A stretch of DNA of 42,517 bases from Candidatus Delongbacteria bacterium. Its GTDB lineage: Bacteria; UBA4055. A model generated the notes under the pieces. That model made no database searches and was not told the origin of the DNA. It saw only the letters and a list, made by a program, of their open reading frames with translations. Position numbers and translations under genes: made by a program. Below, one piece after another: positions 2,913 to 40,366 of the stretch (within the stretch, counting starts at the first letter, position 1; each line of letters starts with the position of its first letter). The DNA lies in NCBI GenBank assembly GCA_016937995.1, contig JAFGVM010000025.1:1-42517 (forward strand), written 5' to 3'.

Positions 2913-2923
2913 TTTTACTCCTG

Positions 2924-3033
2924 TGTCATTGCGAGTCCCGTAATTCGGGATGTGGCAATCTTGTTTTGTTTATACGATATGCCCATGTAGGTCGTCTTTA
3001 CTGTTTTTCTTTGTGTCTCTGTGTCTTTGTGAG
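2924..3033. repeat. REP-like palindromic elements
   Basis: TGTCATTGCGAG-[TCCCG-taatt-CGGGA]-TGTGGCAATC (2924-2960) and tandem CTTTGTGT-CTCTGTGT-CTTTGTGA (3009-3032). Confidence 0.6.
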
Positions 3034-3036
3034 AGA

Positions 3037-8891: not shown

Positions 8892-9270
8892 TATCCTTTT
8901 GTAGATTATTCAATTTTATTGCTGCTATCAAAGAAAGAAATGACATGGGTAATAGAAAAAATGAGCTGTTAAAAACGATCTGCAGACCTGTAATATCTAC
9001 ACCGGAATTTCTTTTGATTATTTCAGGGAAATAAATGTAAAAAACAGCCAGTTTTGCTAATGGAAATGCAATTCCAAAAACCGATAAAAAACAATTCCAA
9101 GTTTTATCTTTTATCCATCTCTTGTTTTTTATTAACGAGCCGCCCTTTGCGATAAAAATAAAAGTAATAACTACATCCAGTACAATATTAACTCTGGCAA
9201 TTAAATTTAAAAGTCCTGCAAATACTAAAAATTGTCCGAAAGTTGTATATGGATGTTTTTTATCCAGCAT
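8881..9270 (-). CDS. Hypothetical integral membrane protein
   Basis: 129 aa with 3-4 hydrophobic segments; overlaps both the serpin stop and the selU start. Confidence 0.65.
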   Translation of the reverse strand: MLDKKHPYTTFGQFLVFAGLLNLIARVNIVLDVVITFIFIAKGGSLIKNKRWIKDKTWNCFLSVFGIAFPLAKLAVFYIYFPEIIKRNSGVDITGLQIVFNSSFFLLPMSFLSLIAAIKLNNLQKDNEY

Positions 9271-10490
9271 TATTTTATACTTGGGTCGTTCAGTCTTCCT
9301 GTAAACAGGATGGTACCGGTCTCATTTTCTCTGATAAAGTAAAAGAAAGGATGATCACATTTAAATTCAGGACATGGTTGAGGCATAGCTCCTTTCATTC
9401 TCATAACTACAGCAGTGGCTGCAGCGGCTTCAGTTCCTTTTTCATCAACCTCGATAAAGGTCTTATGAATTATAGCTGAAATATAAAGTTCTTTATTACC
9501 TGTCATTTTTGAAAAATCCGCTGCTTTAGTGAAAGCATCATTCATTCCAAGATCTTTCATCAGACTGCTTAATTCATAAGATAAATTTAATTTAAACTTA
9601 GGAAAATATACTTTCACTTCTTTTCCTTTTATATTATCTATTGCCGAATCAATAGTGCTCATGTTCAGCTCAGACTCAATTTTGCCCAATCCCTGAGTCT
9701 CTTTTGGTAAAAGTACTAACATAGAGACATCGTTACCCTTATATGGCATCTCCAGGAATTGAAATTTATCGTTTTCATAATACCCATACATTGCTTTATT
9801 ATACATCATTTCTGATGCTACGTCATTACCTTTGGCATTATGGAAAGTGGTTGTTTTAGTTGCGTTTTTTTGGAATTGTTCTTTCCATTCTCCTTTAAAA
9901 TATACAGCATTTGTTAATACCAACCGGGTAAGAGCATCTAAAATTCCCTGTTGAATAAGTTCTTTGATCTTATCATTTGTTTTTTCTTCCACCCACTGAT
10001 TAATTATCTGTCTAGATTTTTCATCTTCGGCAAAATTCAGGTTTTCTATCTGGGCATTGTAGTATTTTTTTCCGATATTTTTGAATGCATCGAGAAAAGT
10101 GTATCCCTCCTGCATCCAAAGACTATTAGCTACACTCAGCTTCACTATTCCTTTTTTACCGATCTCATTTATTTTATCAGTTATCTTTGAGAAATCCTGA
10201 TGGAATGCATCTGTATTTTTAGTAAACTCCAGTGCTTTTGCCATCTCAACTTCAGTATTCCCATTCGATCCCGCAAATGTCATAGCGAGTGCTGAAGATA
10301 TGCTATATGGTGAAAAAAAGATATTGTCGTTCTTTTCATCTGCTGAAAGTTTGCTATATGCTTTCAGCATGAATTCATTATTCCCCTTAGATGCATCGTA
10401 AGGTTGATCCGTTTTCGGTTCAAGATCAGTAAATGACATTGCATTTCCTGCCAGATACATAAAAGCAACTAATACTAATAATTTCTTCAT
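9270..10490 (-). CDS. Secreted serpin (serine protease inhibitor)
   Basis: 'NIFFSPYSISSALAM', 'INQWVEEKTNDKI', 'NAVYFKGEW', hinge 'EKGTEAAAAT', 'DHPFFYFI'; signal peptide; ATG 10490 preceded by RBS GAGGTG (ORF track starts at 10496). Confidence 0.95.
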   Translation of the reverse strand: MKKLLVLVAFMYLAGNAMSFTDLEPKTDQPYDASKGNNEFMLKAYSKLSADEKNDNIFFSPYSISSALAMTFAGSNGNTEVEMAKALEFTKNTDAFHQDFSKITDKINEIGKKGIVKLSVANSLWMQEGYTFLDAFKNIGKKYYNAQIENLNFAEDEKSRQIINQWVEEKTNDKIKELIQQGILDALTRLVLTNAVYFKGEWKEQFQKNATKTTTFHNAKGNDVASEMMYNKAMYGYYENDKFQFLEMPYKGNDVSMLVLLPKETQGLGKIESELNMSTIDSAIDNIKGKEVKVYFPKFKLNLSYELSSLMKDLGMNDAFTKAADFSKMTGNKELYISAIIHKTFIEVDEKGTEAAAATAVVMRMKGAMPQPCPEFKCDHPFFYFIRENETGTILFTGRLNDPSIK

Positions 10491-10520
10491 GAGCACCTCT
10501 TTGTTTCTTATGTAACAATT

Positions 10521-17944: not shown

Positions 17945-20900
17945 ATGACGATAATAAATCAAAGGTATGAGACTGTAAAACTGCTTGGGGAGGGAGGTTT
18001 TGGCAGTGTATACAGTGTTAAAGATACTTTTGAGCATGATAAACTTCTGGCATTAAAAAAAATCAAGACCGGTGTTATCTCCAGTAAGGCTGTAAATGTT
18101 TTTAAGCTGGAATTCAAATTTTTAACCAGTTTGATCCATCCGAATCTGGTTAAAGTTCATAATTTTGATATAGACAAAGATACCGATGAGTTATTTTTTA
18201 CAATGGAGCATATTAAAGGAAAATCGCTCAATAAATCGCTTAAAGAGAGTTTTTCCTGGGAAAAAGTGGAAAATAATCTTATTCAGTCATCCCGAGCCCT
18301 GTCATATATTCATTCAAAAGAAATTATCCATTACGATATAAAACCGGATAATATTTTTATTGATGATTACGGAAGATTAAAGTTAATGGATTTTGGTTTT
18401 GCCGGGTCAAAAAATACTACAGAAGTTAGAGGTACGATGCAGTTCATTGCACCTGAACTTATACTTAAAAAAGATGTGACCCACCAAATAGATTTCTTTT
18501 CACTTGGAGTGACTTTTTACTATAGTATATCTGGAAAGTTACCTTTCAGTGGAAAGGATAAGCAGGAAATCATAGGGAATGCAATACGTGGGAATTTCAC
18601 ACCTATAAAAAAGTTAAAACCAGACACACCGGATAAGTTGGTCAGGGTTATTAATAAATTGATGGAACCTGATCCAAAAAACAGGTATGACAATGCTGAT
18701 GAGATAATTCTTGATCTTGTTGATGATCCAAGAAAAAGATCATCAGTTCTATTTTTGTTCACCGGTCAGGGAATTAGATCATATATTTCTTCCGGAAAGC
18801 TAATCGGTAGAAAAAGTGAACTTAAGCTCTTAATGTCTAACTCTGCGAAAGTATTTCAGGAGCAGGTATTTTTTGACAATAAGCCAATATTTCTGATCGG
18901 AAGATATGGTAATGGTAAATCCTCAATTCTCAGAGAGTATAAATATTTAATTCAATTGAATGAGAATATAGATTATTTTAATGCCAATTTTGTAAGAGGA
19001 GATGAAACTAAATATCAGGCTTTCGAGATCATTATAGCTGAGATGTTCAGAGTCTATGAATTGAAAAAAGAAGATTATCCGGATCTTTCATTTATTTTTG
19101 AAAATAAGAAAGGTATTGAGGACTTCGACGACTCTTCTCAAGCAAGAATACAGAAGATAAGAGAAATTGATGCTATAACAGAATTCTTTGCGGAACTTTC
19201 TAAGCAATATAAATTTGTTCTCGAAGTAAAGGACTTCGGGAATGCAAATTCTTCATCCATTAATCTTTTCGAGAACTTGACCAGGATAATGAGAAAATAT
19301 CCTGAGCATGAAATGTCCTTTATGATAGTGACAACTGTTCAGACAGAGAATTTGAAATCATACCACAAAATTACAATAAAACGGTTAAAGCCCAATATTC
19401 ACCAATTAAGTATAGATCCTCTAAAAGCGGATGAGACTAGAGAATATATTCAAAATCTACTTCTTTCCAGGGGTTATAATAAATTTCCTGAAGAACTTCT
19501 CAGTTTTGTGCATCGTTTTACAGGAGGTGTTCCTTTTTACATTAACGAGTTATTTATATATTTGTTCTCGGAAAATTACCTATCAAGGTATAAATCAAAA
19601 TGGGTAATAAACCCGGCTTTCATGACAGAATTAAACATTGGTCTAAGAGATATAACTTACAAAAATTTTAAAAAATTCTCAAATATTGAGCAGGCAATAA
19701 TTAAGGAGCTCATGGTATTGGGAAGACCTACCCCTTATAAATACATGGATATTGTTTCAAAAGTATCAATGGTCGATAAGAAGATCATGATAAAATTTCT
19801 TCATAAATTATCAGACAGTGAAGTAATAGAGAAAATAAAATATCATGATGGTTTTAGGTACTATATAACCAGAAAATTATTTCTAAATTCTGTTGTAAAG
19901 GATTTCCCTAAAGACCAATACGCAAGATGGAACAACAGAACGGCAGAAATTTTGGAAAAAGAGTACGGTATAAGCAATGAAACTATTTATGCCCTTACTG
20001 ATTACTATTACAGAAGTCCACAAAAGGACAAAGCTATTGAAATGCTTAAACTGGCTATAAACAAATCTTCTGAAGAGAACAACCTGGAGTTTGCAGTAAC
20101 CAACCTGAAGAGGCTTCTTGCAATTGAAACTGACCCGAAGAACAAGATCAATATTTTCATATCGATGATCCAGAATCTATCAATAATCGGAAATTATTCC
20201 AATGTTCTGGATATGATAAATAAATTTGAAGGTGAAGACCATATTCTTACAGCTGTAAATAAATTGAATATTGATCTTATTAAATTTGACTCTTCATTTA
20301 AAGCAGGAAGGTATGATCTGCTTGAGAAAACAAGATCTTCCTTAAGTGATGTAAAGCTTAAAGGAAGAATCCCTAAAGAAATAAAAGCTTCCTATTTAAC
20401 CTGGCTTGGTGATTATCATAAAAATGATGGAAGCCTGGGTAAAGCATTAAGGTATTACAATAAAGCATATAAACTTCATAAGTCAGCAAAACGTGAACTG
20501 CTGAAATCGAAAGTGATGCTCAAGATATCAAAGATAAAAATAATTCAAGGCGAAACGAAACTATTACTTGATCAGATAAAAGAGATCCTGGAGATTTTCA
20601 AAAGATATAATGAAATTGACCTTATACTTGAGACCTACTACACTCTTGGAGATTTATACAAACAAATAAATGAGTATGACAAATCTCTGAATTCCTATAA
20701 CGATTGTAATATTTTAGCCAAAGAGCAGAACAATATAGTTCATGAGGTCAAATCTTCTCATAAATTGGCAGATTTCAAGATCGAATCTCTGCAATATAAT
20801 GATGCTTTATCACTTATAAACTGCGGTGTTGAAAAACCTGAAGATATAAACATTGTAGATCTTTCAGGAGATATATACTTTTACCGTTCAATGGTCAATT

Positions 20901-21640
20901 ATCAAATCGGTAATCTGGAAGAAGCACTGGAGAATATCAATAAATGTATAAACCTGAGAACTCTGCTGAAAAGAAATGCGAAACTGTATGATGCCATGAT
21001 CCATAAAGGTAAAATTCATATCCGTCAATGCAGATACAGTGATGCAAAAATAATACTGGACCTTCTGAGCAATAAAATTTCAAGAGAAAATAAGAGATTT
21101 ATGGTCAAATATTTTACTCTTGAATCTTTAATACTTATCGGTGAAAAAAAATATAAGAAAGCTGTTAATTTAATAGTTCGTGCAGAGAAAATTATTGAAA
21201 AGATAGGAAATCTGACAGAAAAAATTTCACTAAAGATCATACTTGCTTCAACTTATGATAAGATGGGAGATTTTAACAATACTCTGGGCACAATAGGAAC
21301 CGCATACGCTTTATTTATTCAGAACAAAGATGCATTGCTGCCAAACAGGATACTGAATCTTAAACTGATGATCTTTTATAACAAGGTAAAAGCATACGCG
21401 GGAGCTCATGAAGATGGTATTCGTGAAATGTCAGGAATTATTCAGATGATCGGAAATTATAAGATCCCGTTCTACAAAGCAGTTGTGAACTATAACCTTG
21501 GTAATATCTATTATGATACGAACGAAACTTATAGAGCAATCGCATGTTATAAAGTGGCAGTAAGAGAATATGAGAAACTTTCTAAAAATTATCCGGAATT
21601 AAAAAAAATGAACGATATTATTAAGAAAGAAGAAGGATAA
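17945..21640 (+). CDS. Ser/Thr protein kinase - STAND (AAA_16-like) NTPase - TPR protein
   Basis: Hanks motifs GEGGFGSV, ALKK, HYDIKPDN, DFG, GTMQFIAPE; then 'LIGRKSEL', Walker A 'GRYGNGKS', GxP 'TGGVPFYINE'; C-terminal TPR-like helical repeats. Confidence 0.88.
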   Translation: MTIINQRYETVKLLGEGGFGSVYSVKDTFEHDKLLALKKIKTGVISSKAVNVFKLEFKFLTSLIHPNLVKVHNFDIDKDTDELFFTMEHIKGKSLNKSLKESFSWEKVENNLIQSSRALSYIHSKEIIHYDIKPDNIFIDDYGRLKLMDFGFAGSKNTTEVRGTMQFIAPELILKKDVTHQIDFFSLGVTFYYSISGKLPFSGKDKQEIIGNAIRGNFTPIKKLKPDTPDKLVRVINKLMEPDPKNRYDNADEIILDLVDDPRKRSSVLFLFTGQGIRSYISSGKLIGRKSELKLLMSNSAKVFQEQVFFDNKPIFLIGRYGNGKSSILREYKYLIQLNENIDYFNANFVRGDETKYQAFEIIIAEMFRVYELKKEDYPDLSFIFENKKGIEDFDDSSQARIQKIREIDAITEFFAELSKQYKFVLEVKDFGNANSSSINLFENLTRIMRKYPEHEMSFMIVTTVQTENLKSYHKITIKRLKPNIHQLSIDPLKADETREYIQNLLLSRGYNKFPEELLSFVHRFTGGVPFYINELFIYLFSENYLSRYKSKWVINPAFMTELNIGLRDITYKNFKKFSNIEQAIIKELMVLGRPTPYKYMDIVSKVSMVDKKIMIKFLHKLSDSEVIEKIKYHDGFRYYITRKLFLNSVVKDFPKDQYARWNNRTAEILEKEYGISNETIYALTDYYYRSPQKDKAIEMLKLAINKSSEENNLEFAVTNLKRLLAIETDPKNKINIFISMIQNLSIIGNYSNVLDMINKFEGEDHILTAVNKLNIDLIKFDSSFKAGRYDLLEKTRSSLSDVKLKGRIPKEIKASYLTWLGDYHKNDGSLGKALRYYNKAYKLHKSAKRELLKSKVMLKISKIKIIQGETKLLLDQIKEILEIFKRYNEIDLILETYYTLGDLYKQINEYDKSLNSYNDCNILAKEQNNIVHEVKSSHKLADFKIESLQYNDALSLINCGVEKPEDINIVDLSGDIYFYRSMVNYQIGNLEEALENINKCINLRTLLKRNAKLYDAMIHKGKIHIRQCRYSDAKIILDLLSNKISRENKRFMVKYFTLESLILIGEKKYKKAVNLIVRAEKIIEKIGNLTEKISLKIILASTYDKMGDFNNTLGTIGTAYALFIQNKDALLPNRILNLKLMIFYNKVKAYAGAHEDGIREMSGIIQMIGNYKIPFYKAVVNYNLGNIYYDTNETYRAIACYKVAVREYEKLSKNYPELKKMNDIIKKEEG

Positions 21641-21698: not shown

Positions 21699-24600
21699 AT
21701 GAAATTTGAAAAAATATTTACACAAAGAATAAAACGGCTTTCATTACTGATAGTATCAAAGGATATCGTAGATAAAGCTGTCAGATCTTTTTTAATAATA
21801 ACATTATCAATTTTTGTCATTTCTCTAATAGAATTGTTCTATAACATGAACAGTTCATACAGAACTATCATAGTAATAATCACAATAGCGTTATTGTTAT
21901 TGCAATTTCTGCTTATATTTGTAGAAATTTTTAGAAAGAGTGTTCCCTTGATCTCTAATGATAGAGAAAAATACATAAAACTGGACAGTATGTTCCCGGA
22001 TTGTAATTATCTTTTTTTGTTCGATCTTCTCCAACTTAGAAAGGAAAATAAGAATAATGATTACTCCCTTATTGAAAATGCGATCTCATATCATGAGATT
22101 AAGTATAATTCTGTTATAACACCGAAAATATTCGATAAGAATTTTATAATCCGGCATTTATTTATTCCGATACTGATCATAGTGTCATTAACTTCGATTT
22201 TCAGGATCGAACCAATTAATAACTCTATAACAAGATTGATGAATTTTAAAACCGAATTCAAAAACCCATCATCTCATTTTTTACACCTCTTTGAAAAGAA
22301 TACTAAAATTGTACAGGGGGATGAATTATTATTATCCTGTCAAGTCTCAGGGAAATTACCTGATCAGCTTAAGATCCATAAAAGACCCTTAAATTCAAAA
22401 GATTTTACTTCACTGAATATATACCTTTCGGATACTACAGCAACTTTCAGAGAAAGATCTTCACAAAGTTTTTACTATTTCTTCTCTTCCGAGGAAACCA
22501 CTTCTGACACAGGATTCGTTCAGGTATTAAAAAGACCTGAATTGACCAATGTTAAGATGGTCGTTGATTTCCCATCGTATACGAAATTAAAAAGTGAAGA
22601 ATATCAAAATTTTATTGGTCCGGTCACGGTAATGAAAGGAAGTGATATAACTTTTTTCCTGGAACCTTCGTTTGAAGTTGATTCATTGAAAATTTTTGCA
22701 AATGTAGAAAATAAAGTATTTTCAAAAAAAATGAATCATACCGAAATTGGTTATACTACTATTGAACAAAAATTATTTTCTGATACAGAATTTTACTTTA
22801 AACTATACTACTCTTCTGATTCATTGTTGATAGAGAATGTTAACCCTATAATTTACCGTATAAACATACTGAATGATACATATCCAACAGTGAATTTAAT
22901 ACTTCCTGAAGATAATTTTAAACTGGATGAAAATTTAAAATTTCCTGTTTTTGCGACAGCATTTGATGATTTTTCTGTTAGATCAGTATACCTATACTAC
23001 AGAAAAATACCGTTTTTTGAAGATAACTTGAAAAATAATTTCACATTCAGCTATGAAAAAATTACGTATGATCAAAAATCGGATGGTGTTTGTGTTGTTA
23101 ATACAGTTAGATCAATAAATGACTTGAATTTATTACCTGAGGATAAGGTAGAAATTTTCTTGAGGGTTTACGATAATGATATGGTATCAGGTCCTAAGTT
23201 CAGTGATTCCAGACACATTTTTCTTTTACTGCCATCGTTAGAACAACTTTTTGAAGAAACAGCAAATAATTATGAACAGCAAAGTAAAAATATAGAGAAA
23301 GAGAAATTAAGAGATGAAAAGATAAGAGAAACTATTGAACAGTTAACACAAAAATTAAGAAAAGAAAATACTGTTGAGTGGAAAGATCAAAAAGAATTAA
23401 AAAAAATAGCTGAAGAACAGAATTTAATGATGGAGAATATCAAAGACATAGAAAAACAAATAGAGCAGAATATTGAACTTCTGGATAATAATACAATTCT
23501 GAGCACAGAAACACTGAAAAAATATAAACAATTAAAGACTATGGTTAGTGAATTATTCACAAAGGATATGAAAGATAAACTGGAAAAATTATCTGAGCTT
23601 TCACAAAAAACAGATCTGGATCAAAGTGAAATGAATGAACTGTTAAATAATTTTGAAAAACAGCAGGAAGAATTTAAAAATGGATTAGATAAAACACTTG
23701 AAATATTAAAACAGATAAAACAGGAATATCAGCTAGACAGGTTAATAAAATTAGCTGAAGAAATGATCAAAGACCAGATCTCTGTAAATGAAAAAATAGA
23801 AGAAATGAGTATCCATAAAGATCAAATAATCCATGATGAATCTAAGATACAGAGCTCTTTCGAATTATTGAGAAATGAAATAAGCTCTTTTCAGAAAGAT
23901 ATGGAGTCCGAATTTCCGGTTAAAGATCTAAAAGAACTGGCAGATAAAGTGAATTCTGATACAATACCGCAAGAATTTTCAGAATTAAATAAAGGTATTA
24001 ACCAGGGTAAAAAACAAGAAGCCGGAGATCATGGAGAGAAGTTAAGAGATAACTTTCTTGAAATTAAAAACATGCTAACTTCTGTAAAAGACAAGATGGT
24101 CGAAAAGAAAAAGGATGATATAAGCAATGTATTAGACCAGATAATCGATGAACTACTGTTCATTTCCGGAGAGATAGAAGAAATTAAGAATTACTCCAGA
24201 CATTTGGCTTATAATTCAACACATGCAGTAGAACTGATCAGAAGAAATGCGGAAATTGAAAATCTATTCAAGCAGGTAAATAAAAATATATTTAACATTG
24301 CAAAACAAACATTTTTTATAGATAATACTATTATAGCAAATATTGGAAGGATACTTGAGCAGTTTGAAACTATTTCAAGGATCCTAGAAAATCGACATTT
24401 TTCCCTGTCCACAGACAGTCATAAATATATAATGGGTAATGTAAATAAGCTGATAGTACTCCTTGCCAAAGCAAAAGAAAATGTTAACAATTCTAAGTCT
24501 GCTTCAGGATTGGAAGAGATGTTGAAAAAAATGGAAGAGCTTGCTGCAATGCAGTCAAGTTTAAATTCCGATAGTCAGAATACTATGCAGATGGGAAAAT

Positions 24601-25199
24601 CTGGAGAAAGTTCATTGTCCAAAATGCAGGAAATGATGAATAAATTAGCTCAACAACAGATGCAATTATCTGAGTTATTATCAAAAATGAAATCCGATAT
24701 GGGTATGCCTCAAAGCGGTGAGAATGGTAAGCCCGGCTCAGAAGGAAGTCCCGGGAATTCCGGGATGCCTAGTATACCTGGAGATCAAGGTATGCCGGGA
24801 CAGGGAAATTCGGGGAAAAACGGAAAAGGTTCCAATCCTGATCCAAATGGTAACGGTGATCCAGTGAATTCAGCACTTGGAAAGAAACTCGGTGGTATTG
24901 GCAAATCAATGAATGACGTAGCGAATGAATTGAAAAATAGAAAGCTGGATGAATCAGTATTGAACAAACAGAAGCAGATACTAAATAAGTTATTAGATGC
25001 TATTGAATCGACCAGAAGAGAAAAATACTCAAATAAAAGAGAAAGTAAAGGCAGCGATAAATACGCGATCGATCCGGGAGAGCTTGAATTGAACTTCAAG
25101 AACACATTACGCGAAAATCTTATCAGGTCCTTAAAAGATGATTACAGGAATGATTACAAGGTTAAAATAAAAAAATACTTCAAGGAATTGGAATACTAG
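21699..25199 (+). CDS. Large membrane-anchored DUF4175-like protein (beta domains plus long coiled coil)
   Basis: N-terminal TM helices; 'VDFPSYTKL', 'DTYPTVNL', 'AFDDFSV', 'YDNDMVSGPK'; Q/E/K-rich coiled coil; G/P-rich segment; terminal 'DYKVKIKKYFKEL'. Confidence 0.7.
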   Translation: MKFEKIFTQRIKRLSLLIVSKDIVDKAVRSFLIITLSIFVISLIELFYNMNSSYRTIIVIITIALLLLQFLLIFVEIFRKSVPLISNDREKYIKLDSMFPDCNYLFLFDLLQLRKENKNNDYSLIENAISYHEIKYNSVITPKIFDKNFIIRHLFIPILIIVSLTSIFRIEPINNSITRLMNFKTEFKNPSSHFLHLFEKNTKIVQGDELLLSCQVSGKLPDQLKIHKRPLNSKDFTSLNIYLSDTTATFRERSSQSFYYFFSSEETTSDTGFVQVLKRPELTNVKMVVDFPSYTKLKSEEYQNFIGPVTVMKGSDITFFLEPSFEVDSLKIFANVENKVFSKKMNHTEIGYTTIEQKLFSDTEFYFKLYYSSDSLLIENVNPIIYRINILNDTYPTVNLILPEDNFKLDENLKFPVFATAFDDFSVRSVYLYYRKIPFFEDNLKNNFTFSYEKITYDQKSDGVCVVNTVRSINDLNLLPEDKVEIFLRVYDNDMVSGPKFSDSRHIFLLLPSLEQLFEETANNYEQQSKNIEKEKLRDEKIRETIEQLTQKLRKENTVEWKDQKELKKIAEEQNLMMENIKDIEKQIEQNIELLDNNTILSTETLKKYKQLKTMVSELFTKDMKDKLEKLSELSQKTDLDQSEMNELLNNFEKQQEEFKNGLDKTLEILKQIKQEYQLDRLIKLAEEMIKDQISVNEKIEEMSIHKDQIIHDESKIQSSFELLRNEISSFQKDMESEFPVKDLKELADKVNSDTIPQEFSELNKGINQGKKQEAGDHGEKLRDNFLEIKNMLTSVKDKMVEKKKDDISNVLDQIIDELLFISGEIEEIKNYSRHLAYNSTHAVELIRRNAEIENLFKQVNKNIFNIAKQTFFIDNTIIANIGRILEQFETISRILENRHFSLSTDSHKYIMGNVNKLIVLLAKAKENVNNSKSASGLEEMLKKMEELAAMQSSLNSDSQNTMQMGKSGESSLSKMQEMMNKLAQQQMQLSELLSKMKSDMGMPQSGENGKPGSEGSPGNSGMPSIPGDQGMPGQGNSGKNGKGSNPDPNGNGDPVNSALGKKLGGIGKSMNDVANELKNRKLDESVLNKQKQILNKLLDAIESTRREKYSNKRESKGSDKYAIDPGELELNFKNTLRENLIRSLKDDYRNDYKVKIKKYFKELEY

Positions 25200-25222: not shown

Positions 25223-26767
25223 ATGAAAAAATTTATTTTTTTATTGATCGTCACACTTATTTTTCTTTCATGCTCAAAAGCAGGATCAGAAAAGTATACT
25301 TTACTAACTGTTAATTCAATGAACGGACAGATTTTTCCAAAGGTAAAAAATAATATAAAATTCGGTGGGTTCAGTCTGTTATCCTCAAATGTAAAAAAGA
25401 TCAGGAGCGATAAAATAAATGGAGAGGTAATTTTATTGGGAAATTCAAACTTCATTTACGGGGAAGTTGAAACTTATTTTACTTCTGGAAAAGCTGTTAT
25501 CGATCTTATGAATGAAATCGGGTTTAACTGTATGGTCATCGGACACAGAGAATTTTATTTTGGTTTTGATGTATTGGAATCACTATCAAAAAGAGCTAAA
25601 TTCCCGTTTATTTCTGCAAATATTGTGAAAAAGGACAGCAGTAGATTCGATTTTATCAAACCTTATTATATCATGCCTGACAATAAAACTGCTATCATTG
25701 GTATCAGCTCATTAAAAGTTATAAAAGCTAATTTAGAAAAAGATATTAGTGAAATATTATTGCTCGATCCTTCAGAATCTTTAGCCAAGTATAGCAAGTT
25801 GCTGAGGAAGAAGGGTATCAATAAAATAATAGCAGTGGGTGATTTTATGTGTGTTGCCGAAGGTGATAAATCCTTAAAGAATTATCAATTTTCTGAAATA
25901 ATAGAGAATAGTGACATTGACGTACTTATAGGTACTTCAAATGAAAAAGACAGAATGGATACTAACTGCATTTGTAATACGATTAAGTCCATTAAATTAC
26001 TCTCATCAGACATAGATGGTAATGAAATGCTGCTCTACAGTTATAACTTGAAAACAGGAATTGAAGAGTCTCAAATTTTCAAGATAAATTCAAATAACAG
26101 TGAACCGGACAAAGAATTATCCCGGACATTACATGAGCTAAATGAGCTTGTTAAAGAAACAGCTGGTCAGGTTCTAGGAATTTCAGAGGATGAGATATCA
26201 CATTTGGAAGGGAACTTGTTTAACAGAGAGTCATACTTGGGTGATCTGATCAGTGATATTATTCGTGAATATACGAATACTGATATTATGCTGCTCAACA
26301 GCGGAAAAGTAAGGAACGGATTTAGTAAAGGTCCGATCACTCTAATGGATCTTTATAACATACTTCCGTATGAAGGAACGGTAGTAAAAGTATCGATGAC
26401 AGGGAAGCAACTATTACGGGTTCTAGAAAGCAGCTGTGCTTTAAAAATGAGTAAAAGTTTCTTGCAAGTATCAGGTATAAAGTTTAAATTCGATCTTAGC
26501 AAAAATATTTACAAAAGAGTACTTGCAGAAAGTGTTATTATCGGTGGTGAGAAATTGCAACCTGAAAAAAAATATTCAGTATCCTTAACCAAGTATATAT
26601 TTGACGGTGGAGATCAATATTCAGAATTTTCAGATATGGGTATAGAACTTGAAATGGTATTTCAAAAACAGATGAGAGAAATAATTAAGCAATACATCCA
26701 ATCAAACAAGACCATAAGGATACATGAAAATAGCAGGATAACAGAAATAAATGATTATAAATTATAG
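25223..26767 (+). CDS. 5'-nucleotidase (UshA-like) lipoprotein with degenerate metal-binding site
   Basis: Lipobox FLS-C17; 'AKFPFISANI', 'IKPYYI'; C-terminal domain 'RESYLGDLISD', 'NSGKVR', 'ILPYE', 'QVSGI', 'GGDQY'; catalytic motifs substituted. Confidence 0.85.
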   Translation: MKKFIFLLIVTLIFLSCSKAGSEKYTLLTVNSMNGQIFPKVKNNIKFGGFSLLSSNVKKIRSDKINGEVILLGNSNFIYGEVETYFTSGKAVIDLMNEIGFNCMVIGHREFYFGFDVLESLSKRAKFPFISANIVKKDSSRFDFIKPYYIMPDNKTAIIGISSLKVIKANLEKDISEILLLDPSESLAKYSKLLRKKGINKIIAVGDFMCVAEGDKSLKNYQFSEIIENSDIDVLIGTSNEKDRMDTNCICNTIKSIKLLSSDIDGNEMLLYSYNLKTGIEESQIFKINSNNSEPDKELSRTLHELNELVKETAGQVLGISEDEISHLEGNLFNRESYLGDLISDIIREYTNTDIMLLNSGKVRNGFSKGPITLMDLYNILPYEGTVVKVSMTGKQLLRVLESSCALKMSKSFLQVSGIKFKFDLSKNIYKRVLAESVIIGGEKLQPEKKYSVSLTKYIFDGGDQYSEFSDMGIELEMVFQKQMREIIKQYIQSNKTIRIHENSRITEINDYKL

Positions 26768-26784
26768 CGACTGAGTTTTTTAAT

Positions 26785-29394
26785 ATGATAAGATTGTTCA
26801 GAGATAAATTACTATTCAAGCTGATATTAATTTTTTTTGTAGCTATTATTTTACCTATCGGTATAGCTGCTCTGTTGATTAATGATCACATTGAGGATAA
26901 ATATTGCGAAAATATTGAATCCTCTCTTGGATGGGGAAAGAATTATGTTATATCAAATTTTTCAAATGAGATAAAATTACTCAATGCAAGTATACTGAAA
27001 GTGCAGAACGATTCAAAATTTATTTCTTCGATTAAATACCACTTAGGTGATAAGGATGATTATCTGATACAGGTATCTCTTTCTCAAATTCTAACTGAAA
27101 ATAATCTGGATTTCATTTACGTGTACTGTAATAATACAGATATTGTTCACAGGTCGGGTAAATTCATACAAATTTCAGAGGAGTTATTAAAAAGAAAAAA
27201 TATTGAACCTGAAATAAGCTATTACAATTCAAAATTTATTACACAGGCTAAGATCAACATTGAAATAAATGATGTTGAAACCGGTAACATTACTATATTT
27301 TTAGGCAAAATTCTTTCAGAACAGATGCTTTATGACCTAAGCAGTATTATGGATCTTGATTTTATTCTGTTGAAAGAAAATAATGGTAGAATGATCAGTA
27401 CATATTCTACATTATTCGATACATACGGGCAAAATTACAATAAAGGTGAGATCGAACTGGAAAATGTAAGTATGCAAGAAAAAATGGAGAATGTCGAGAT
27501 ACTGGGTAAAAAATATTATTTGTTATCATTCCCACTAACATTTTTAGATGAAAAATACACTGGAGTAATACTTGCAGAGAATAATCCATCATATCTAGAC
27601 AATATTAAAAAATACCTCTATATCTTTTTTTTCGGATTGTTATTTTTTATTCTCGTAAGTCTTGTATTTATTCATAAAACCCTCTTCAAACCGATTTCAA
27701 AGCTATTATCAAGTATAAATGAGATATCAGATCAAATCGAAAAAGAAAAGCCAATTGAGAAGATCATTGTAAAAACTTCTGATGAAATATTTCTATTATC
27801 TGAAGCTTATAACAGTATGGCTTCAACACTTGGACAGAGTTTTTCAAAAGTTAAGTACCTTCAAAATTACTTATTGAATATTATCGAATCAATGCCTTCA
27901 TCTCTGATGGCACTTGATAAGAACGGGAGAGTAACTCAATGGAATCATGCTGCTGAGGATTTTACAGGTGTTTTGAAGAATGATGCTAAAGGCAAGGTTA
28001 TTTGGAATTTAGTTCCGGATCTAGGAATTGAAACAGAAGTTCTAAATTCTGTACATGATGAAAAACGCCAAAGAGAGTTCTATAAAGAATCAGTATGGAA
28101 TGGAGAAAAAAGAAATCTCAATATTCATATATTTCCATTGATAGCGAACGGAGTTCAGGGGAATGTAATCAGGATAGATGATATTACAGAGATGAAAAAT
28201 AAGGAAGAACAACTTCTTCAGGCTCAAAAAATGGAGACAATAGGTACTTTGGCTGGTGGTATTGCACATGATTTCAATAATATTTTAAGCGGAATAGTCG
28301 GAGTGATCTCAATACTCACGTTCAAGATGGATAAAGATGAGGATATACCGAAATCTCTGTTGAAAGAATATCTGGAAATAATGGAAGAATCGGGCAAACG
28401 AGCAGGTGAGATAGTACAAAGATTGCTTACACTGTCAAAGAAACAAAACACACATCTTGAAGCTGTTAATCTCTCAGATGTAGTTAAGCATGTAGAAAAA
28501 ATTTGTTTGAACAGTTTTGATAAGCGTATTGAGATAAAAAAGATCGGTACGGAAAATAATACTTTGATAAATGCGGATTTTACTCAGATAGAACAGCTGC
28601 TGTTGAATTTAAGTATCAATTCCGCCCATGCGATGACAATAATGAGAGACTCGGATGAAAAACAGGGAGGTATATTAACCTTTGAGATAGTTGAAAGTGC
28701 TGATCCTTCTGAAATAAGAAAATTTTTAAATGATGACTTAAAAAAAGAATATATTAAGTTAATGGTACATGATACAGGTGTTGGAATGACCAGAGATATC
28801 ATTAAACAGATCTATGAGCCTTTCTTTTCAACTAAAGAACTGGATTCAGGTACCGGTCTGGGATTGACAATGGTATACAATATTGTAACGCAGTTCAATG
28901 GTTTTATTGATGTTGAATCAGTACCTAATATAGGATCTGTTTTCAGTATTTATTTCCCAAAGTACAGTTTTGATGCTAAAGTTATTAATACAGAGAAAGA
29001 TCCTGTTTTAAAGAGAGGAGAAGGAAAAATATTGGTAATTGATGATGAACTGGTTTTAAGAGAACTCGCAAATTCAATGCTGACACAATGTGGATATGAA
29101 GTTTTGACAGCAAAAGACGGAGTTGAAGGTTTAGAAGTCTATAAACAGGAGTTTGCAAACATTACCGCCGTAATGCTTGACATGGTAATGCCTAAAATGA
29201 ACGGGAAAGATACGTATATTGAACTAAAAAAAATAAATCCGGATGTTAAAGTATTGTTAGCGTCAGGATTCACAAAAGACGACAGGGTTGAAGAAGTACT
29301 GAGTTTGGGTGTAAAAGATTTTATACAAAAACCGTATACTATCTATGAACTGTCAGATATAATAAGTAAGATAATCAATGGAGACCTGAACTGA
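26785..29394 (+). CDS. Membrane hybrid sensor histidine kinase (TM-sensor-TM-HAMP-PAS-HisKA-HATPase-REC)
   Basis: H-box 'AGGIAHDFNNIL', N-box 'QLLLNLSINSAHAM', 'DTGVGM', 'EPFFSTK', 'GTGLGL'; receiver 'LVIDDE...LDMVMP...SG...KP'; PAS 'WNHAAE'. Confidence 0.95.
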   Translation: MIRLFRDKLLFKLILIFFVAIILPIGIAALLINDHIEDKYCENIESSLGWGKNYVISNFSNEIKLLNASILKVQNDSKFISSIKYHLGDKDDYLIQVSLSQILTENNLDFIYVYCNNTDIVHRSGKFIQISEELLKRKNIEPEISYYNSKFITQAKINIEINDVETGNITIFLGKILSEQMLYDLSSIMDLDFILLKENNGRMISTYSTLFDTYGQNYNKGEIELENVSMQEKMENVEILGKKYYLLSFPLTFLDEKYTGVILAENNPSYLDNIKKYLYIFFFGLLFFILVSLVFIHKTLFKPISKLLSSINEISDQIEKEKPIEKIIVKTSDEIFLLSEAYNSMASTLGQSFSKVKYLQNYLLNIIESMPSSLMALDKNGRVTQWNHAAEDFTGVLKNDAKGKVIWNLVPDLGIETEVLNSVHDEKRQREFYKESVWNGEKRNLNIHIFPLIANGVQGNVIRIDDITEMKNKEEQLLQAQKMETIGTLAGGIAHDFNNILSGIVGVISILTFKMDKDEDIPKSLLKEYLEIMEESGKRAGEIVQRLLTLSKKQNTHLEAVNLSDVVKHVEKICLNSFDKRIEIKKIGTENNTLINADFTQIEQLLLNLSINSAHAMTIMRDSDEKQGGILTFEIVESADPSEIRKFLNDDLKKEYIKLMVHDTGVGMTRDIIKQIYEPFFSTKELDSGTGLGLTMVYNIVTQFNGFIDVESVPNIGSVFSIYFPKYSFDAKVINTEKDPVLKRGEGKILVIDDELVLRELANSMLTQCGYEVLTAKDGVEGLEVYKQEFANITAVMLDMVMPKMNGKDTYIELKKINPDVKVLLASGFTKDDRVEEVLSLGVKDFIQKPYTIYELSDIISKIINGDLN

Positions 29395-30266
29395 AAAGAG
29401 AAAGATTACCTGACTGGATAAAAATTGATTTTAAGCATGATTCTTCAGTATTAAAATTAAAAAAAGACTTAAAATCCAGAAAATTATATACTGTATGTGA
29501 AGAGGCAAGATGCCCCAATCTGTCTGAATGTTTCGGAGAAAAAAAGACTGCTACATTTATGATACTTGGTAAAAATTGTACAAGAAATTGTGCTTTTTGC
29601 AGTATTGCGAATGCTGATCCAAGCCGGATAGATCCGGATGAGCCTGAGAATATTGCACGGATGACCATGGAGCTGGAATTAAGCCATGTTGTAATTACGT
29701 CTGTAACAAGAGATGATCTTACAGATGGAGGTTCAGAACAATTTGTTAATGTCATAAATTCAATTCGTAATTTGACAAACGCTACAATTGAAGTACTTAC
29801 TCCTGATTTTGGGGGTAATGAAAAAGATAGAAAAAGAATATCAAATGTCAAACCGGACATTTATAATCATAACCTGGAGACAGTTCCTGATTTGTATGAC
29901 ATTATCAGACCACAGGCCATATACAGCAGATCTTTGGAATTTTTAAAAGGTATCAAAAGAGACGACAGAACCATATTGACTAAATCAGGGATAATGGTGG
30001 GTTTGGGTGAAACCGAGGAACAATTGAAAAGGTTATTAGATGATGTAGCTTCTTCAGAGGTTGATATCTTTACCTGTGGTCAATATCTTAGACCGTCAAA
30101 AAATAATTATAAAGTCCAGGAATACAGGTCGGAAGAATGGTTCCAAAAGTTCAGAGAAACAGCGTTAAAAGCAGGAATTAAAAATGTATACAGCTCACCT
30201 TTTACCAGAAGCTCATATAATGCAAGTGATATTATCAATAAGATCAAAAAAGGAACAAAAAGTTAA
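29391..30266 (+). CDS. lipA: Lipoyl synthase (start at non-canonical CTG 29391; ORF-track start 29559 is internal)
   Basis: In-frame upstream extension encodes 'RLPDWIK' and 'TVCEEARCPNLSEC' (CX4CX5C), then 'CTRNCAFC', 'VITSVTRDDL', 'NHNLETV', 'GQYLRPS', 'RSSY'. Confidence 0.93.
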   Translation: MKRERLPDWIKIDFKHDSSVLKLKKDLKSRKLYTVCEEARCPNLSECFGEKKTATFMILGKNCTRNCAFCSIANADPSRIDPDEPENIARMTMELELSHVVITSVTRDDLTDGGSEQFVNVINSIRNLTNATIEVLTPDFGGNEKDRKRISNVKPDIYNHNLETVPDLYDIIRPQAIYSRSLEFLKGIKRDDRTILTKSGIMVGLGETEEQLKRLLDDVASSEVDIFTCGQYLRPSKNNYKVQEYRSEEWFQKFRETALKAGIKNVYSSPFTRSSYNASDIINKIKKGTKS

Positions 30267-30278
30267 GAACGGGTAAAA

Positions 30279-31274
30279 ATGGAAATCAATGAAAAATTTA
30301 TACCTTACTGGATGAAAGGGACTGATAATTCAGTAGCTTTATATTCTTCTATTAAATGTGTCAGGAACTATAAAGATCGTAATTTTCCTGCCGGAAAGAA
30401 ACAGTTCAATAACAGTGATTCCGTAAAACTCACTGATGACATTCTTTCTGAAAAAATATCGGATGGAACCGTTAAAAAGATAGATCTTGAACAGCTTTCG
30501 ATAAATGAGCTGGTAATGATGCAAAAAGTCAGGATATTGCCAAATTTGAGAATATCAGAGTTAAAAAAATTAACGATATATACCTACGATAACGGCCAGG
30601 TCTTTTTATTGCTTAATTACATGGATCATCTGACTTTTTACTCTTATGGTCAGGGAGGTATGATAAAAAAAGCTTATTCGAATCTAAAAAAATTTCTTAA
30701 ACTATTTGATATAAAATACTTTGCTGTGGATGAAAAAAAACGATTTTTAACATCCTCTATTGAATATTTCGGAACAGGAATGAAATGTTTTTCTGTTCTA
30801 ACTTTAGCAGGATTAAGAGTAAAGAACAAATTCCCTGAGATCATTTCTTATTTATCCCAGAACAGCTATTCAAATAAAAAATATTTCGGGTTCGGAAGTA
30901 GTCTTGATGATCTTATAATAATAATGAACAAGGATTCTTTGACCCTTACCGAGAATAAAATTGTAGAAAATCATTACAATTTTCTTAAGCTATTATCAGA
31001 GGAAACAAAATTAAATTCTTTGACAAATAATGAATTAAATGACATATACATAAAAACAAAAAGAATTATGAGTGCGGAATTATTATCATTTAAAAGCTTT
31101 ATGGAAGCTTATAATTTGATTACATTATTAGTGGGTTATAATAAAATTAAAAAAATTAGAATTTCAGAGTTGAATAAAACACTTTCTATTCTTATAATTA
31201 ACCTACCCAGAGTGATTCATTCTGCTAGAGTTAAGAGGAAATTAATAGAAAATCTTATCCGCAAACTCGATTAA
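30279..31274 (+). CDS. Degenerate ATP:guanido phosphotransferase (McsB-like) protein
   Basis: 'VALYSSIKCVRNYKDRNFP', 'LLNYMDHL', 'FAVDEKKRFLTSSIEYFGTGMKC...LAGL' align in order with McsB motifs SSRIRLARN..FP, NEEDH, GYLTSCPTNVGTGLRA..HLPAL. Confidence 0.7.
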   Translation: MEINEKFIPYWMKGTDNSVALYSSIKCVRNYKDRNFPAGKKQFNNSDSVKLTDDILSEKISDGTVKKIDLEQLSINELVMMQKVRILPNLRISELKKLTIYTYDNGQVFLLLNYMDHLTFYSYGQGGMIKKAYSNLKKFLKLFDIKYFAVDEKKRFLTSSIEYFGTGMKCFSVLTLAGLRVKNKFPEIISYLSQNSYSNKKYFGFGSSLDDLIIIMNKDSLTLTENKIVENHYNFLKLLSEETKLNSLTNNELNDIYIKTKRIMSAELLSFKSFMEAYNLITLLVGYNKIKKIRISELNKTLSILIINLPRVIHSARVKRKLIENLIRKLD

Positions 31275-38523: not shown

Positions 38524-38926
38524 TTGTTTATTTTTCTTTTTCTTAATAGTTTGCTCTTCAATCCCTATGTGTCAATTTACAATTATCTGCATTTAAAGTA
38601 AAGTAATTGTTTAGTAGTTAATTTAATTCTTCGATCTTCAATCAATAAACTGATGTTGCAATTATTACTTTAATTCAAAAAGTAATTAATTATTTTCTTG
38701 CTATTTGATTTTTTTTTCTTTATATATGTAATGATGCAATTAGGGTTACTCTATTTTTTTTAAGATGTAAATATTGATGAAGTGAATGTGAAGACTTAAT
38801 AAGTCGTTGATGATAGCTGAAAGTAAAAGATTAATGTAGGGAATGTAAAAAATTATACTCCCCAAACATATAGAAAATTCTAAATTATCGAAGTTAGATA
38901 GAATAATATTATAATTGAGGTTAACA

Positions 38927-40366
38927 TTGAAAATTTTCAAGAAAATGTGTATAATTCTAATTATTATTAGTGCTTGCTACTCTGATGAATATATTGTGCC
39001 TATGAAGCCAGCATCTGTAGATGTCGCAGATATTGATTTTGATGGTGATCTAGATATTGTGATTGGACATCATTATAGTAATGATTGGTCAGGAATAACA
39101 ACTTTATCTAATAATGGTAAGGGTATATTTTCTGTTATAGATTCTTTTTATTTTGGGGGTAGCCATGGTTCCTTACATCTGTTAGACTTAGACAAAGACA
39201 ATAACTACGACATTATAACTGAATATTATGATGATGTTGAAAATGTTGGCATAGGTATTCTATTTGATTTTTACAATAATCTACATGAAAGTCATTATTT
39301 TTTAGACAATGGTGCAAGTAATTTTAAATTATGTGATATAGATGATGACAGCAATATAGATGTTACTTTTTGTAGTAATCCATATTTTTTTTGGGGATAT
39401 ATTAAAAATGACGGTGATGGAATATTTACCTCTCCAGTCTATTACAATTTAGATTATCCACCTCAAGATTTGGAAATTGGTGATTTGAATAATGATGGAA
39501 GGGAGGATATACTTATAGGGGGACAACTGGATTCGTGGTTGAACTATGATACTGGACTAGAGTATCATGAAATACCTGATTCAATTCATGCTAATACAAT
39601 AAAAGTGGCTGATATTGACAATGACCTTGATAACGATATTATCGGTTCTGTATGGTATATGCCTGGAACTTCTAAAAAGTTGGTAATTTACACTAATGAT
39701 GGAAGTGGGAACTTTGAATTAACATATTCTAAATGGATAGATGAAGCACTTACAGAAATGTTTATTTCAGACCTTAACAAAGATGATTATCCAGAAATAA
39801 TTTACAATGTGTCTTATTCGTATCCTAACTCAGATTATGAATTATTTCATACTTATATTTTATTTAACAACCAAGATGGCACCTTCCGAGATCCTATTGA
39901 CTATTATACAGGTATCTGTTCTCATAAATCTTTTGTTGCTGACTTAGATGGCAATGGAAGAAATGATATTATTACTCTAAATTATGACTTTTATAATCCA
40001 CCACCGTCAAGAGGTACTATACATATACTGTTTCAAGATAGTCTTGGTGGTTTTGTCGAAGAATCTCAAACATCAATTGACAATGGACAATTGATAATGG
40101 ACAATTATGAACTGTCTCAAAATTACCCTAATCCGTTTAATAATCAGACAAATATTCAATATCAACTTAAGAGTGTTTCTAAAATTGAAATAAACATCTT
40201 TAATCCAAATGGACAATTTGTTCGAAGTTTGGTAAATGAAAAAATGGGAAAGGGAAATCATTCAGTGATGTTTGATGCTAATAATTTAAATTCGGGAATC
40301 TATTATTATCAACTGAAGATTGATGGGAAGGTTATGAAAACGAAAAAGATGTTGTATCTAAGATAA
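38927..40366 (+). CDS. Secreted FG-GAP/VCBS-repeat protein with C-terminal T9SS-A/FlgD-like sorting domain
   Basis: About 7 repeats of the type 'ADIDFDGDLDIV', 'GDLNNDGREDIL', 'ADLDGNGRNDII'; C-terminal 'YELSQNYPNPFN...SGIYYYQL...KKMLYLR'; TTG 38927 has RBS GAGGT. Confidence 0.88.
   Translation: MKIFKKMCIILIIISACYSDEYIVPMKPASVDVADIDFDGDLDIVIGHHYSNDWSGITTLSNNGKGIFSVIDSFYFGGSHGSLHLLDLDKDNNYDIITEYYDDVENVGIGILFDFYNNLHESHYFLDNGASNFKLCDIDDDSNIDVTFCSNPYFFWGYIKNDGDGIFTSPVYYNLDYPPQDLEIGDLNNDGREDILIGGQLDSWLNYDTGLEYHEIPDSIHANTIKVADIDNDLDNDIIGSVWYMPGTSKKLVIYTNDGSGNFELTYSKWIDEALTEMFISDLNKDDYPEIIYNVSYSYPNSDYELFHTYILFNNQDGTFRDPIDYYTGICSHKSFVADLDGNGRNDIITLNYDFYNPPPSRGTIHILFQDSLGGFVEESQTSIDNGQLIMDNYELSQNYPNPFNNQTNIQYQLKSVSKIEINIFNPNGQFVRSLVNEKMGKGNHSVMFDANNLNSGIYYYQLKIDGKVMKTKKMLYLR
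40074..40108 (+). repeat. Heptamer tandem repeat inside the coding linker
   Basis: CAATTGA-CAATGGA-CAATTGA-TAATGGA-CAATTAT encoding S-I-D-N-G-Q-L-I-M-D-N-Y. Confidence 0.7.

Follow-up and report, generated by a model that had tools for sequence, protein, structure and literature searches.

The window analysed here is the whole of contig JAFGVM010000025.1 (42,517 nucleotides, nt), part of a Candidatus Delongbacteria metagenome-assembled genome (MAG) of 2.75 Mb and 97% completeness. Two genes on its + strand encode, in this order, a lipoprotein with the fold of a 5′-nucleotidase, here p5NT (P0001), and a hybrid histidine kinase, here HHK (P0002). Every metal-binding and catalytic residue of the 5′-nucleotidases is replaced in p5NT, which is very likely a periplasmic pseudoenzyme, predicted to be lipid-anchored and devoid of metal-dependent phosphoester hydrolysis. 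We propose, with a probability of roughly 0.6, that p5NT is a ligand-binding accessory subunit, a putative co-sensor, of the kinase encoded downstream. The proposal relies chiefly on the pairing of such dead 5′-nucleotidases with homologous sensor domains in several phyla. The relevant features are as follows (aa, amino acids; ORF, open reading frame; TM, transmembrane segment).

25223..26767, + strand: p5NT gene, dead 5′-nucleotidase-like lipoprotein of 514 aa (from ORF, Pfam and fold model)
8 nt before the p5NT start, + strand: Shine-Dalgarno sequence GGAGG
25223..25273, + strand: predicted p5NT signal peptide with lipobox-like ...FLSC, Cys17 codon at 25271-25273 (from the sequence and the invariance of Cys17)
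25292..26107, + strand: p5NT N-terminal domain, residues ~24-295, metallophosphatase fold, with S32, N34, N76, H108, R109, D207, S239 and E241
26216..26629, + strand: p5NT C-terminal domain (5_nucleotid_C), residues 332-469, with N359, R364, Y383, Y458, G462, G463 and D464 retained
26768..26784, + strand: 17-nt spacer between the p5NT and kinase genes
26785..29394, + strand: HHK gene, hybrid histidine kinase of 869 aa
26881..27585, + strand: HHK periplasmic sensor domain, residues ~33-267, dCache/double-PDC-like (from model, Foldseek and homologous partner domains), flanked by TM1 (~residues 10-32) and TM2 (~268-299)
27667..28194, + strand: HHK HAMP (295-349) and PAS (363-470), Pfam
28246..28962, + strand: HHK HisKA (488-555) and HATPase_c (599-726), Pfam
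29029..29364, + strand: HHK receiver (REC), residues 749-860, Pfam

Fold, metal site and C-terminal pocket of p5NT

In the UshA family, the C-terminal domain binds the base of the substrate and the N-terminal domain, with two metal ions, carries out catalysis; a 96-degree domain rotation is needed, as in UshA, according to a review (PMC8475336). p5NT aligns over its full length to solved 5′-nucleotidases (3ivd, E-value (E) 4e-30, residues 48-471; UshA, 1ush, E 1e-17). Its AlphaFold model (predicted local distance difference test, pLDDT, 89.3; predicted template-modelling score 0.84) retrieves 5′-nucleotidases only in Foldseek, along the whole length and with E from 7e-39 to 1e-34, the best template-modelling score being 0.79, to the E. 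coli enzyme structure 1oi8. Alignment, model and Foldseek agree on the two-domain architecture of an N-terminal metallophosphatase domain, a linker helix and a C-terminal 5_nucleotid_C domain. Pfam recognises the last alone (residues 332-469, E 2e-35), with no Metallophos match in p5NT at E<=0.01. The protein scores 143.8 bits against a cut-off of 600 bits for the NCBIfam UshA equivalog, and a look-up in ESM Atlas returned ordinary 5′-nucleotidase clusters only.

To compare the catalytic motifs, 243 domains contributed by 190 homologues were aligned to one hidden Markov model (HMM); 157 of these domains are canonical. Using the numbering of p5NT, residues D32, H34, D76, N108 and H109 are found in 157/157 canonical domains, H207 in 149, H239 in 152 and H241 in 147. 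The corresponding residues of p5NT are S32, N34, N76, H108, R109, D207, S239 and E241, so that 0/8 are retained, and the motifs read TVNSMNG, GNSN, GHREFY, VGD and GTSNE. The N-terminus contains a hydrophobic stretch, ...LIFLSC(17)S, in which positions -3 and -2 (F, L) are atypical; the lipoprotein call was made from this sequence and from the conservation of the Cys. Cys17 is invariant in 28/28 members of the family defined below and in 18/18 wider relatives.

An earlier note on this DNA, written from the letters and a list of ORFs, had described an intact reading frame ending 17 nt before a kinase gene, a 514-aa lipoprotein with the two-domain layout of UshA, and metallophosphoesterase motifs altered throughout. 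The ORF calls (25223-26767 and 26785-29394), the alignments, the model and the invariant Cys17 bear out this description, and each of its motif readings proved right in the 243-domain alignment. The comparison with UshA and Pfam which the note had suggested is the one reported above. It had likewise been correct about the C-terminal domain, where the nucleoside-binding features are kept: NSGKVR (359-364), LPYE (381-384) and KYIFDGGDQY (457-466) fall in the columns where canonical enzymes have N, R, two aromatics and GGD (N359, R364, Y383, Y458, G462, G463, D464). We take these residues to form the pocket that holds the nucleoside. Throughout the family, N359, R364, F413, Y458, G462, G463 and D464 are present in 28/28 members, which all (28/28) have Y or W at position 383; in the wider clade of dead proteins (see below), N359 is found in 19/24, R364 in 15/24 and D464 in 19/24. 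The pocket would suit a nucleoside or a nucleotide derivative, an identification of the ligand to which we give slightly less than even odds.

Conservation of the degenerate form

A word-indexed search for close relatives found 28 proteins, all annotated with the C-terminal Pfam domain only; after these, scores fall from 409 to 133 bits, the level at which canonical enzymes start. The family alignment (n = 28) consists of p5NT of the window and 27 relatives, the partial P0009 being omitted; members are 42-70% identical to p5NT. The residues that replace the metal ligands are fixed or nearly so: S32, H108, R109 and D207 occur in 28/28 members, N34 and N76 in 27/28. Invariant positions number 93/514, and mean pairwise identity within the family is 0.59 in the N-terminal domain versus 0.66 in the C-terminal domain. 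Orthologues with intact motifs at this locus, which the earlier note had held to be a sign of recent decay, were looked for and found at 0/11 Delongbacteria loci. No second p5NT homologue was found with this query in the genome of origin (97% complete).

Recent decay was rejected because the fold is predicted with confidence, the substitutions are fixed in the family and the dead N-terminal domain is nearly as conserved as the C-terminal one. As far as sequence can tell, these findings support the view, already that of the earlier note, that p5NT is a pseudoenzyme, and one kept under long purifying selection. In the wider dead clade, R109 and E/D110 alone are constant, R109 being so by definition of the group; the residues seen are H, N, P, V or S at position 108 and D, S, A, G or Q at position 207.

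Pairing with membrane signalling genes across phyla

HMMER, run exhaustively against 1.84 billion representatives, yielded a graded series of relatives, many of the closest of which are also degenerate (pattern S-[KRN]-G / N / x-R-E). Loci were scanned in species genomes and in metagenome contigs, 79 in each, with a 7-sequence alignment, since a wider 18-sequence alignment had no stretch conserved enough for the scan. A locus was classed as canonical if it kept at least 7/8 canonical positions and as degenerate if it kept at most 4/8.

Species genome loci (79): canonical 46, degenerate 21, intermediate 11, unclassifiable 1
Metagenome contig loci (79): canonical 44, degenerate 23, intermediate 5, unclassifiable 7

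The degenerate genome loci outside Delongbacteria belong to nine spirochaete MAGs, a MAG labelled Thermodesulfobacteriota (L054) and one further genome (L119). The downstream gene is complete at seven of the spirochaete and L054 loci, and in 7/7 it lies on the same strand and starts -3 to +120 nt after the dead 5′-nucleotidase gene. All seven of these genes encode an N-terminal region of ~280-320 aa followed by HAMP-HisKA-HATPase_c, with REC in 6/7 and Guanylate_cyc in 4/7. At the remaining 3 of 10 loci the downstream gene is cut by the contig end, and the 112-236 aa left have no Pfam match. Upstream neighbours vary among these loci (DUF2807, methyltransferase, xanthine/uracil permease, sulfatase). 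In two metagenome contigs, L142 (6174-8465) and L144 (1702-3993), the partner is not a kinase: the sensor N-terminal region is followed by HAMP-SpoIIE(PP2C)-TPR.

The periplasmic domains of these partners are homologous. Comparison of the Delongbacteria and spirochaete profiles with hhalign gives a probability of 97.3% (E 2.6e-11, 289 columns); against the L142 partner the probability is 97.2% (E 3e-11), and against the L054 partner BLASTP gives E 3e-11. All have in common the motif DFxL...(S/T)TxxDx(Y/F)G. In a FastTree tree of 74 homologues, the dead proteins from Delongbacteria, spirochaetes and other sources form one clade of 24 tips (local support 1.0), and within it every readable downstream gene encodes a membrane signalling protein, the outputs being HK-REC, HK-REC-cyclase (HK, histidine kinase) and HAMP-PP2C. 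A sensor that stays constant while the cytoplasmic output varies is the signature that a shared input module would leave. Linkage of accessory protein and kinase is thus conserved beyond local synteny, and the pairing across phyla, with a homologous sensor and varied outputs, supports the functional coupling of p5NT to the kinase. Given its constant adjacency to a membrane signalling protein, p5NT is probably an extracellular ligand sensor.

Two of these loci call for comment. The dead 5′-nucleotidase of L054 has 39% identity and falls within the clade of the Delongbacteria family (support 0.946), and its kinase has the HAMP-PAS-HisKA-HATPase_c-REC architecture of HHK; this points to gene transfer or to a mis-binned contig. 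At the spirochaete locus L055, a xanthine/uracil permease gene (2793-4157, - strand) lies divergently upstream of the dead 5′-nucleotidase gene, a single case among spirochaetes that is possibly relevant to a purine or pyrimidine ligand.

Linkage within Delongbacteria

The sample of the phylum comprised 16 species genomes of one GTDB family. p5NT orthologues were found in 11/15 of the other genomes, and the kinase orthologue follows directly in 11/11 loci, with gaps of 2-19 nt (first-start ORF calls). The gene order is the same throughout: Ser/Thr kinase, CC1166, p5NT, HHK, LipA, McsB-like, CvpA, enolase. One genome (G014) is without p5NT only on account of contig breaks inside CC1166 and inside HHK. 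Two others (G001, G002) have neither p5NT nor the HHK sensor, and their CC1166 lies in another context.

In the remaining genome, G003, the syntenic locus reads CC1166, a 397-aa kinase, LipA, McsB-like, CvpA, enolase. This truncated kinase orthologue (L041; contig C22, 3988-5178, - strand, directly after CC1166) matches only residues 358-727 of HHK (PAS-HisKA-HATPase_c). p5NT, TM1, the sensor, TM2 and HAMP are jointly absent and REC is also gone; the rest of this 82%-complete genome yielded neither p5NT nor the sensor. The Ser/Thr kinase encoded nearby was used for a tree that was to place G003, and it gave a polytomy; the wider distribution suggests that the G003 state arose by secondary deletion. 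The CC1166 match at L041 carries one in-frame TAG. CC1166 and the Ser/Thr kinase were considered as further parts of the module and rejected, since neither occurs at L054, at L142 or at the spirochaete loci.

Non-degenerate loci and other degenerate lineages

Neighbours of other homologues were read with Pfam, as a custom kinase-core HMM was too insensitive (it missed the Pfam-confirmed L061 kinase). At E<=1e-8, HisKA or HATPase_c was found in 0/105 genes lying closest to the other 59 genome loci. At E<=1e-4, HisKA, HATPase_c, HAMP or SpoIIE was found in 0/101 ORFs, made up of 32 neighbours without an earlier match and 69 neighbours of non-degenerate metagenome loci; 14/115 listed ORFs were omitted from this control because they were near-duplicate loci or short pieces at contig ends (L143, 2; L145, 2; L147; L148, 2; L150:1-321; L165:6300-6893; L171:1-392; L183; L185; L187; L199:3813-4652). 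No kinase adjoins a non-degenerate 5′-nucleotidase homologue among the loci examined. The earlier note had advised comparing ligand loss with kinase adjacency across homologues; in the dead clade, ligand loss co-occurs with adjacency to a membrane signalling gene.

A different degenerate lineage, in which most catalytic residues are lost and KRE replaces NHE, was found at L152, L159, L164, L188 and L196, and also at L179. In 5/5 complete loci (the first five), there is a 4-nt overlap with the next gene downstream, which is of the type N-terminal region-(HAMP)-GGDEF and encodes a membrane diguanylate cyclase of ~540 aa with a helical-looking N-terminal domain. Like p5NT, the KRE-type proteins combine a degenerate site with a membrane signalling gene directly downstream. 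Unlike p5NT, they fall in a separate lineage of the tree, together with near-canonical Gemmatimonadales-type proteins (support 0.987) and apart from the clade of the window, and the N-terminal domain of their partner is not detectably homologous to the HHK sensor: the idea of a sensor in common was rejected, at an hhalign probability of 0.4%. This suggests a second, independent recruitment.

The Gemmatimonadales-type loci (L091-L093, L111, L112, L116, L171, L172, L182, L194) encode near-canonical 5′-nucleotidase-like lipoproteins whose motif I reads NDVY, the first His ligand being changed to Tyr and the other ligands kept. A gene for a GAF-GGDEF protein (444 aa) follows ~180 nt downstream; at L172 the contig stops within this gene.

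The kinase sensor and a predicted complex

HHK consists of TM1, a periplasmic domain of ~235 aa, TM2 and HAMP-PAS-HisKA-HATPase_c-REC, and the Pfam matches (HisKA, E 1e-10; HATPase_c, 1.5e-14; receiver, 1.3e-20) identify it as a hybrid histidine kinase. The size of the periplasmic domain is close to the ~240 aa read in the earlier note. In a model of residues 1-300 (pLDDT 84), two beta-rich modules come after a long helix, and Foldseek matches it to dCache-type domains, including Mlp24 (E 1.7e-7), the kinase ectodomain 8w7p, Tlp3 and DctB, with the LuxQ periplasmic structures 3c30 and 2hje further down the list. Domains with bound amino acids, dicarboxylates and purines are among the matches.

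The complex prediction with the sensor domain that the earlier note had suggested was made once, for p5NT 20-514 and HHK 33-276, with custom alignments and 3 controls. The interface score, ipSAE, was 0.41, 0.40 and 0.44, against 0.00 for the best of the 3 controls, values that the calibration of the tool grades as "weak support", no interface being reported. The ipSAE mark is reached by 116/157 solved complexes and 2/215 mismatched pairs, and scores <=0.60 include only 18 of the 157 solved complexes plus both passing mismatches. The runs agreed in at least 95% of contacts, with partner pLDDT of at least 78. On balance, we find it quite likely that p5NT is a partner or co-sensor of the kinase periplasmic domain.

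In the mechanism that we envisage, a nucleoside- or nucleotide-like ligand would bind between the C-terminal pocket and the remodelled N-terminal site (S32, N34, N76, H108, R109, D207), where R109, which replaces the catalytic His, might substitute for the metals in holding an anionic group. Binding would shift the hinge state of p5NT, the large domain rotation of the family being put to use as a switch, and the dCache-like domain of the kinase would read the hinge change. The signal would then pass through TM2-HAMP-PAS to HisKA/HATPase_c and on to the fused receiver. Physical binding, the identity of the ligand and the hinge switch are what we infer here. The central claim of the earlier note, that a pseudoenzyme has been reused as a receptor for the kinase, is supported as to the pseudoenzyme and as to the coupling with the kinase (cross-phylum linkage, homologous sensors, joint absence in G003); its receptor function is carried forward as the conditional scheme just described.

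Weighing the co-sensor proposal

Several observations weigh against a ligand-binding co-sensor. Adjacency in Delongbacteria is weak on its own since the whole region is syntenic, and the state of G003 may result from one contiguous deletion and not from co-selection. Three degenerate loci have no signalling gene next to them: L119 (Amj) and L176 and L177 (subtilase, 764 nt away). The grading of the predicted complex points the same way. The retained pocket residues are also structural and hence no proof of ligand binding. Moreover, an Arg of the C-terminal domain, three residues before E336 and present in 71/157 canonical domains, is replaced by Phe in 27/28 family members; if this Arg is the phosphate clamp of canonical enzymes, the ligand may lack a 5′-phosphate in the usual pose. 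Finally, dCache domains usually bind small ligands themselves, and HHK may need no partner.

Some of these points would be accommodated if p5NT contacted the kinase periplasmic domain with no small molecule involved, either to report the state of the envelope or as a constitutive inhibitor or scaffold. RcsF and NlpE are reporters of the former kind, for lipoprotein trafficking and outer-membrane or peptidoglycan integrity; CpxP and ExoR exemplify the latter. All of the linkage evidence fits such a role equally well, as do the predicted lipid anchor and the lost Arg. We nonetheless think it unlikely: a pure scaffold need not keep a pocket that shows no variation among 28/28 family members and that the wider dead clade largely retains, and the remodelled N-terminal site is also invariant and polar. 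The same polar, strictly conserved residues, including the H108-R109 pair and D207, together with the retained pocket and the capacity of dCache domains to bind small molecules directly, could instead speak for an enzyme with a new, metal-independent chemistry, whose product or substrate the kinase would sense with no complex being formed. However, positions 108 and 207 vary across the wider dead clade, which is not the behaviour of a catalytic site, and we know of no precedent for catalysis by the 5′-nucleotidase fold in the absence of its dinuclear metal centre. This explanation appears very improbable.

Least probable in our estimation, and disfavoured, is that adjacency reflects operon packing of unrelated genes, p5NT having a periplasmic role of its own such as the capture of nucleosides for uptake. 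The synteny of the Delongbacteria region, which extends to the housekeeping genes LipA, enolase and PheST, is compatible with packing, as is the divergent permease gene of L055. Yet all other neighbours change from phylum to phylum and the pairing does not, the partner sensor stays homologous while the cytoplasmic output changes, no kinase was found beside the non-degenerate homologues examined, and no transporter is consistently linked. A ligand-binding co-sensor remains our preferred explanation for p5NT.

Relation to known systems

p5NT resembles UshA and CD73 in its two-domain fold over the full length (Foldseek E ~1e-35 to 1e-38), in export and in the base/ribose pocket motifs of the C-terminal domain. 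It differs from them in having none of the eight metal-binding and catalytic residues and in being encoded with a sensor kinase, not with nucleotide-salvage genes. As it does not have the defining metal site, p5NT is probably no active enzyme of the UshA type, and the annotation "bifunctional metallophosphatase/5′-nucleotidase" given to such proteins is very likely wrong as to activity.

Pairs of a periplasmic binding protein and a sensor kinase are well known (LuxP/LuxQ, TorT/TorS, ChvE/VirA). As in LuxP/LuxQ, a separate exported accessory protein is encoded beside a hybrid kinase with a double PDC/PAS periplasmic part. In contrast to LuxP, a type I/II periplasmic binding protein, p5NT has an enzyme-derived 5′-nucleotidase fold and a predicted lipid anchor, and it is known here from its sequence.

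PruR/DcpA of Agrobacterium tumefaciens is a closer parallel than LuxP/LuxQ. Periplasmic PruR, distantly similar to a molybdenum-cofactor (MoCo)-binding domain, binds a pterin and controls DcpA through the periplasmic domain of the latter; binding and interaction were demonstrated experimentally, and the operon is conserved in many bacteria, according to the study that describes the pair (PMC11194511). On this account, both systems join a periplasmic protein with an enzyme fold to a membrane signalling enzyme of the same operon. They differ in the fold (SUOX-like versus 5′-nucleotidase), in the partner (GGDEF-EAL versus hybrid kinase, PP2C or cyclase), in the pterin ligand of PruR, and in that p5NT is known from sequence and models. 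No description of a 5′-nucleotidase-like co-sensor was found in the literature searched, whose coverage excluded subscription journals, and the term "nucleotidase" is absent from the text of a review giving a census of c-di-GMP sensory systems (term search; PMC8846402). The statement of the earlier note that no system of this kind had been described thus holds for this fold in the literature searched; the general principle of an enzyme-fold co-sensor is already known from PruR/DcpA.

A more general interpretation can be put forward tentatively, at odds well short of even: that dead 5′-nucleotidases constitute widespread and ancient extracytoplasmic receptors for nucleosides, nucleotides or nucleotide-sugars, with a hinge switch and a dCache-like port to kinases, PP2C phosphatases and cyclases, and that a second lineage was independently coupled to diguanylate cyclases. 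Nucleotides and nucleosides reach the extracellular medium through lysis and host secretion and are plentiful in sediments and biofilms; to our knowledge, bacterial sensing of these compounds is poorly understood and few dedicated receptors are known. If correct, the interpretation would describe a bacterial counterpart of purinergic sensing, built on the CD73 fold. p5NT/HHK is a testable candidate, with an expressible soluble domain, a defined partner domain and natural kinase, phosphatase and cyclase variants; it would also be a clear example, in prokaryotes, of a receptor derived from an enzyme.

Other features of the window

A simple scan detected no terminator-like site in the spacer (26768-26784), the scan being no better than on shuffled sequence; likewise, 80 promoter-like sites were counted in the promoter/terminator scan, versus 75.9 expected from shuffles. 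The same-strand gene string that includes p5NT is headed by a gene (17945-21640, + strand) for a 1231-aa cytoplasmic Ser/Thr kinase with a fused AAA_16-like region and TPR repeats, 58-85% identical across the Delongbacteria family. CC1166 (21699-25199, + strand; 1166 aa) combines TM segments at its N-terminus with long coiled-coil-like stretches and a tail of low complexity. Neither Pfam nor NCBIfam gives a match, and the protein is kept in all Delongbacteria genomes searched, even in those without p5NT.

Downstream of HHK, the ORF for LipA (lipoyl synthase) was called at 29559-30266 and matches positions 51-282 of the NCBIfam LipA profile. The frame is open from before the kinase stop codon, and 29382-29558 encodes the conserved N-terminus with a Cys-rich motif; no ATG, GTG or TTG is present ahead of 29559. 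The L015 orthologue is alike in this respect; that of G003 does have an ATG. These features point to a non-standard LipA start or to a tight coupling with the kinase gene. Between LipA and CvpA lies a gene (30279-31274, + strand) for a distant McsB-like ATP:guanido phosphotransferase, which matches protein arginine kinase models with E ~1e-18, far under the cut-offs; McsA and ClpC are not nearby. Elsewhere, the window encodes a bacterial serpin (9270-10496, - strand; Pfam E 3e-125) and an FG-GAP protein (38915-40366, + strand) whose tail is a sorting signal for type IX secretion; the cell is by implication diderm and equipped with this secretion system.

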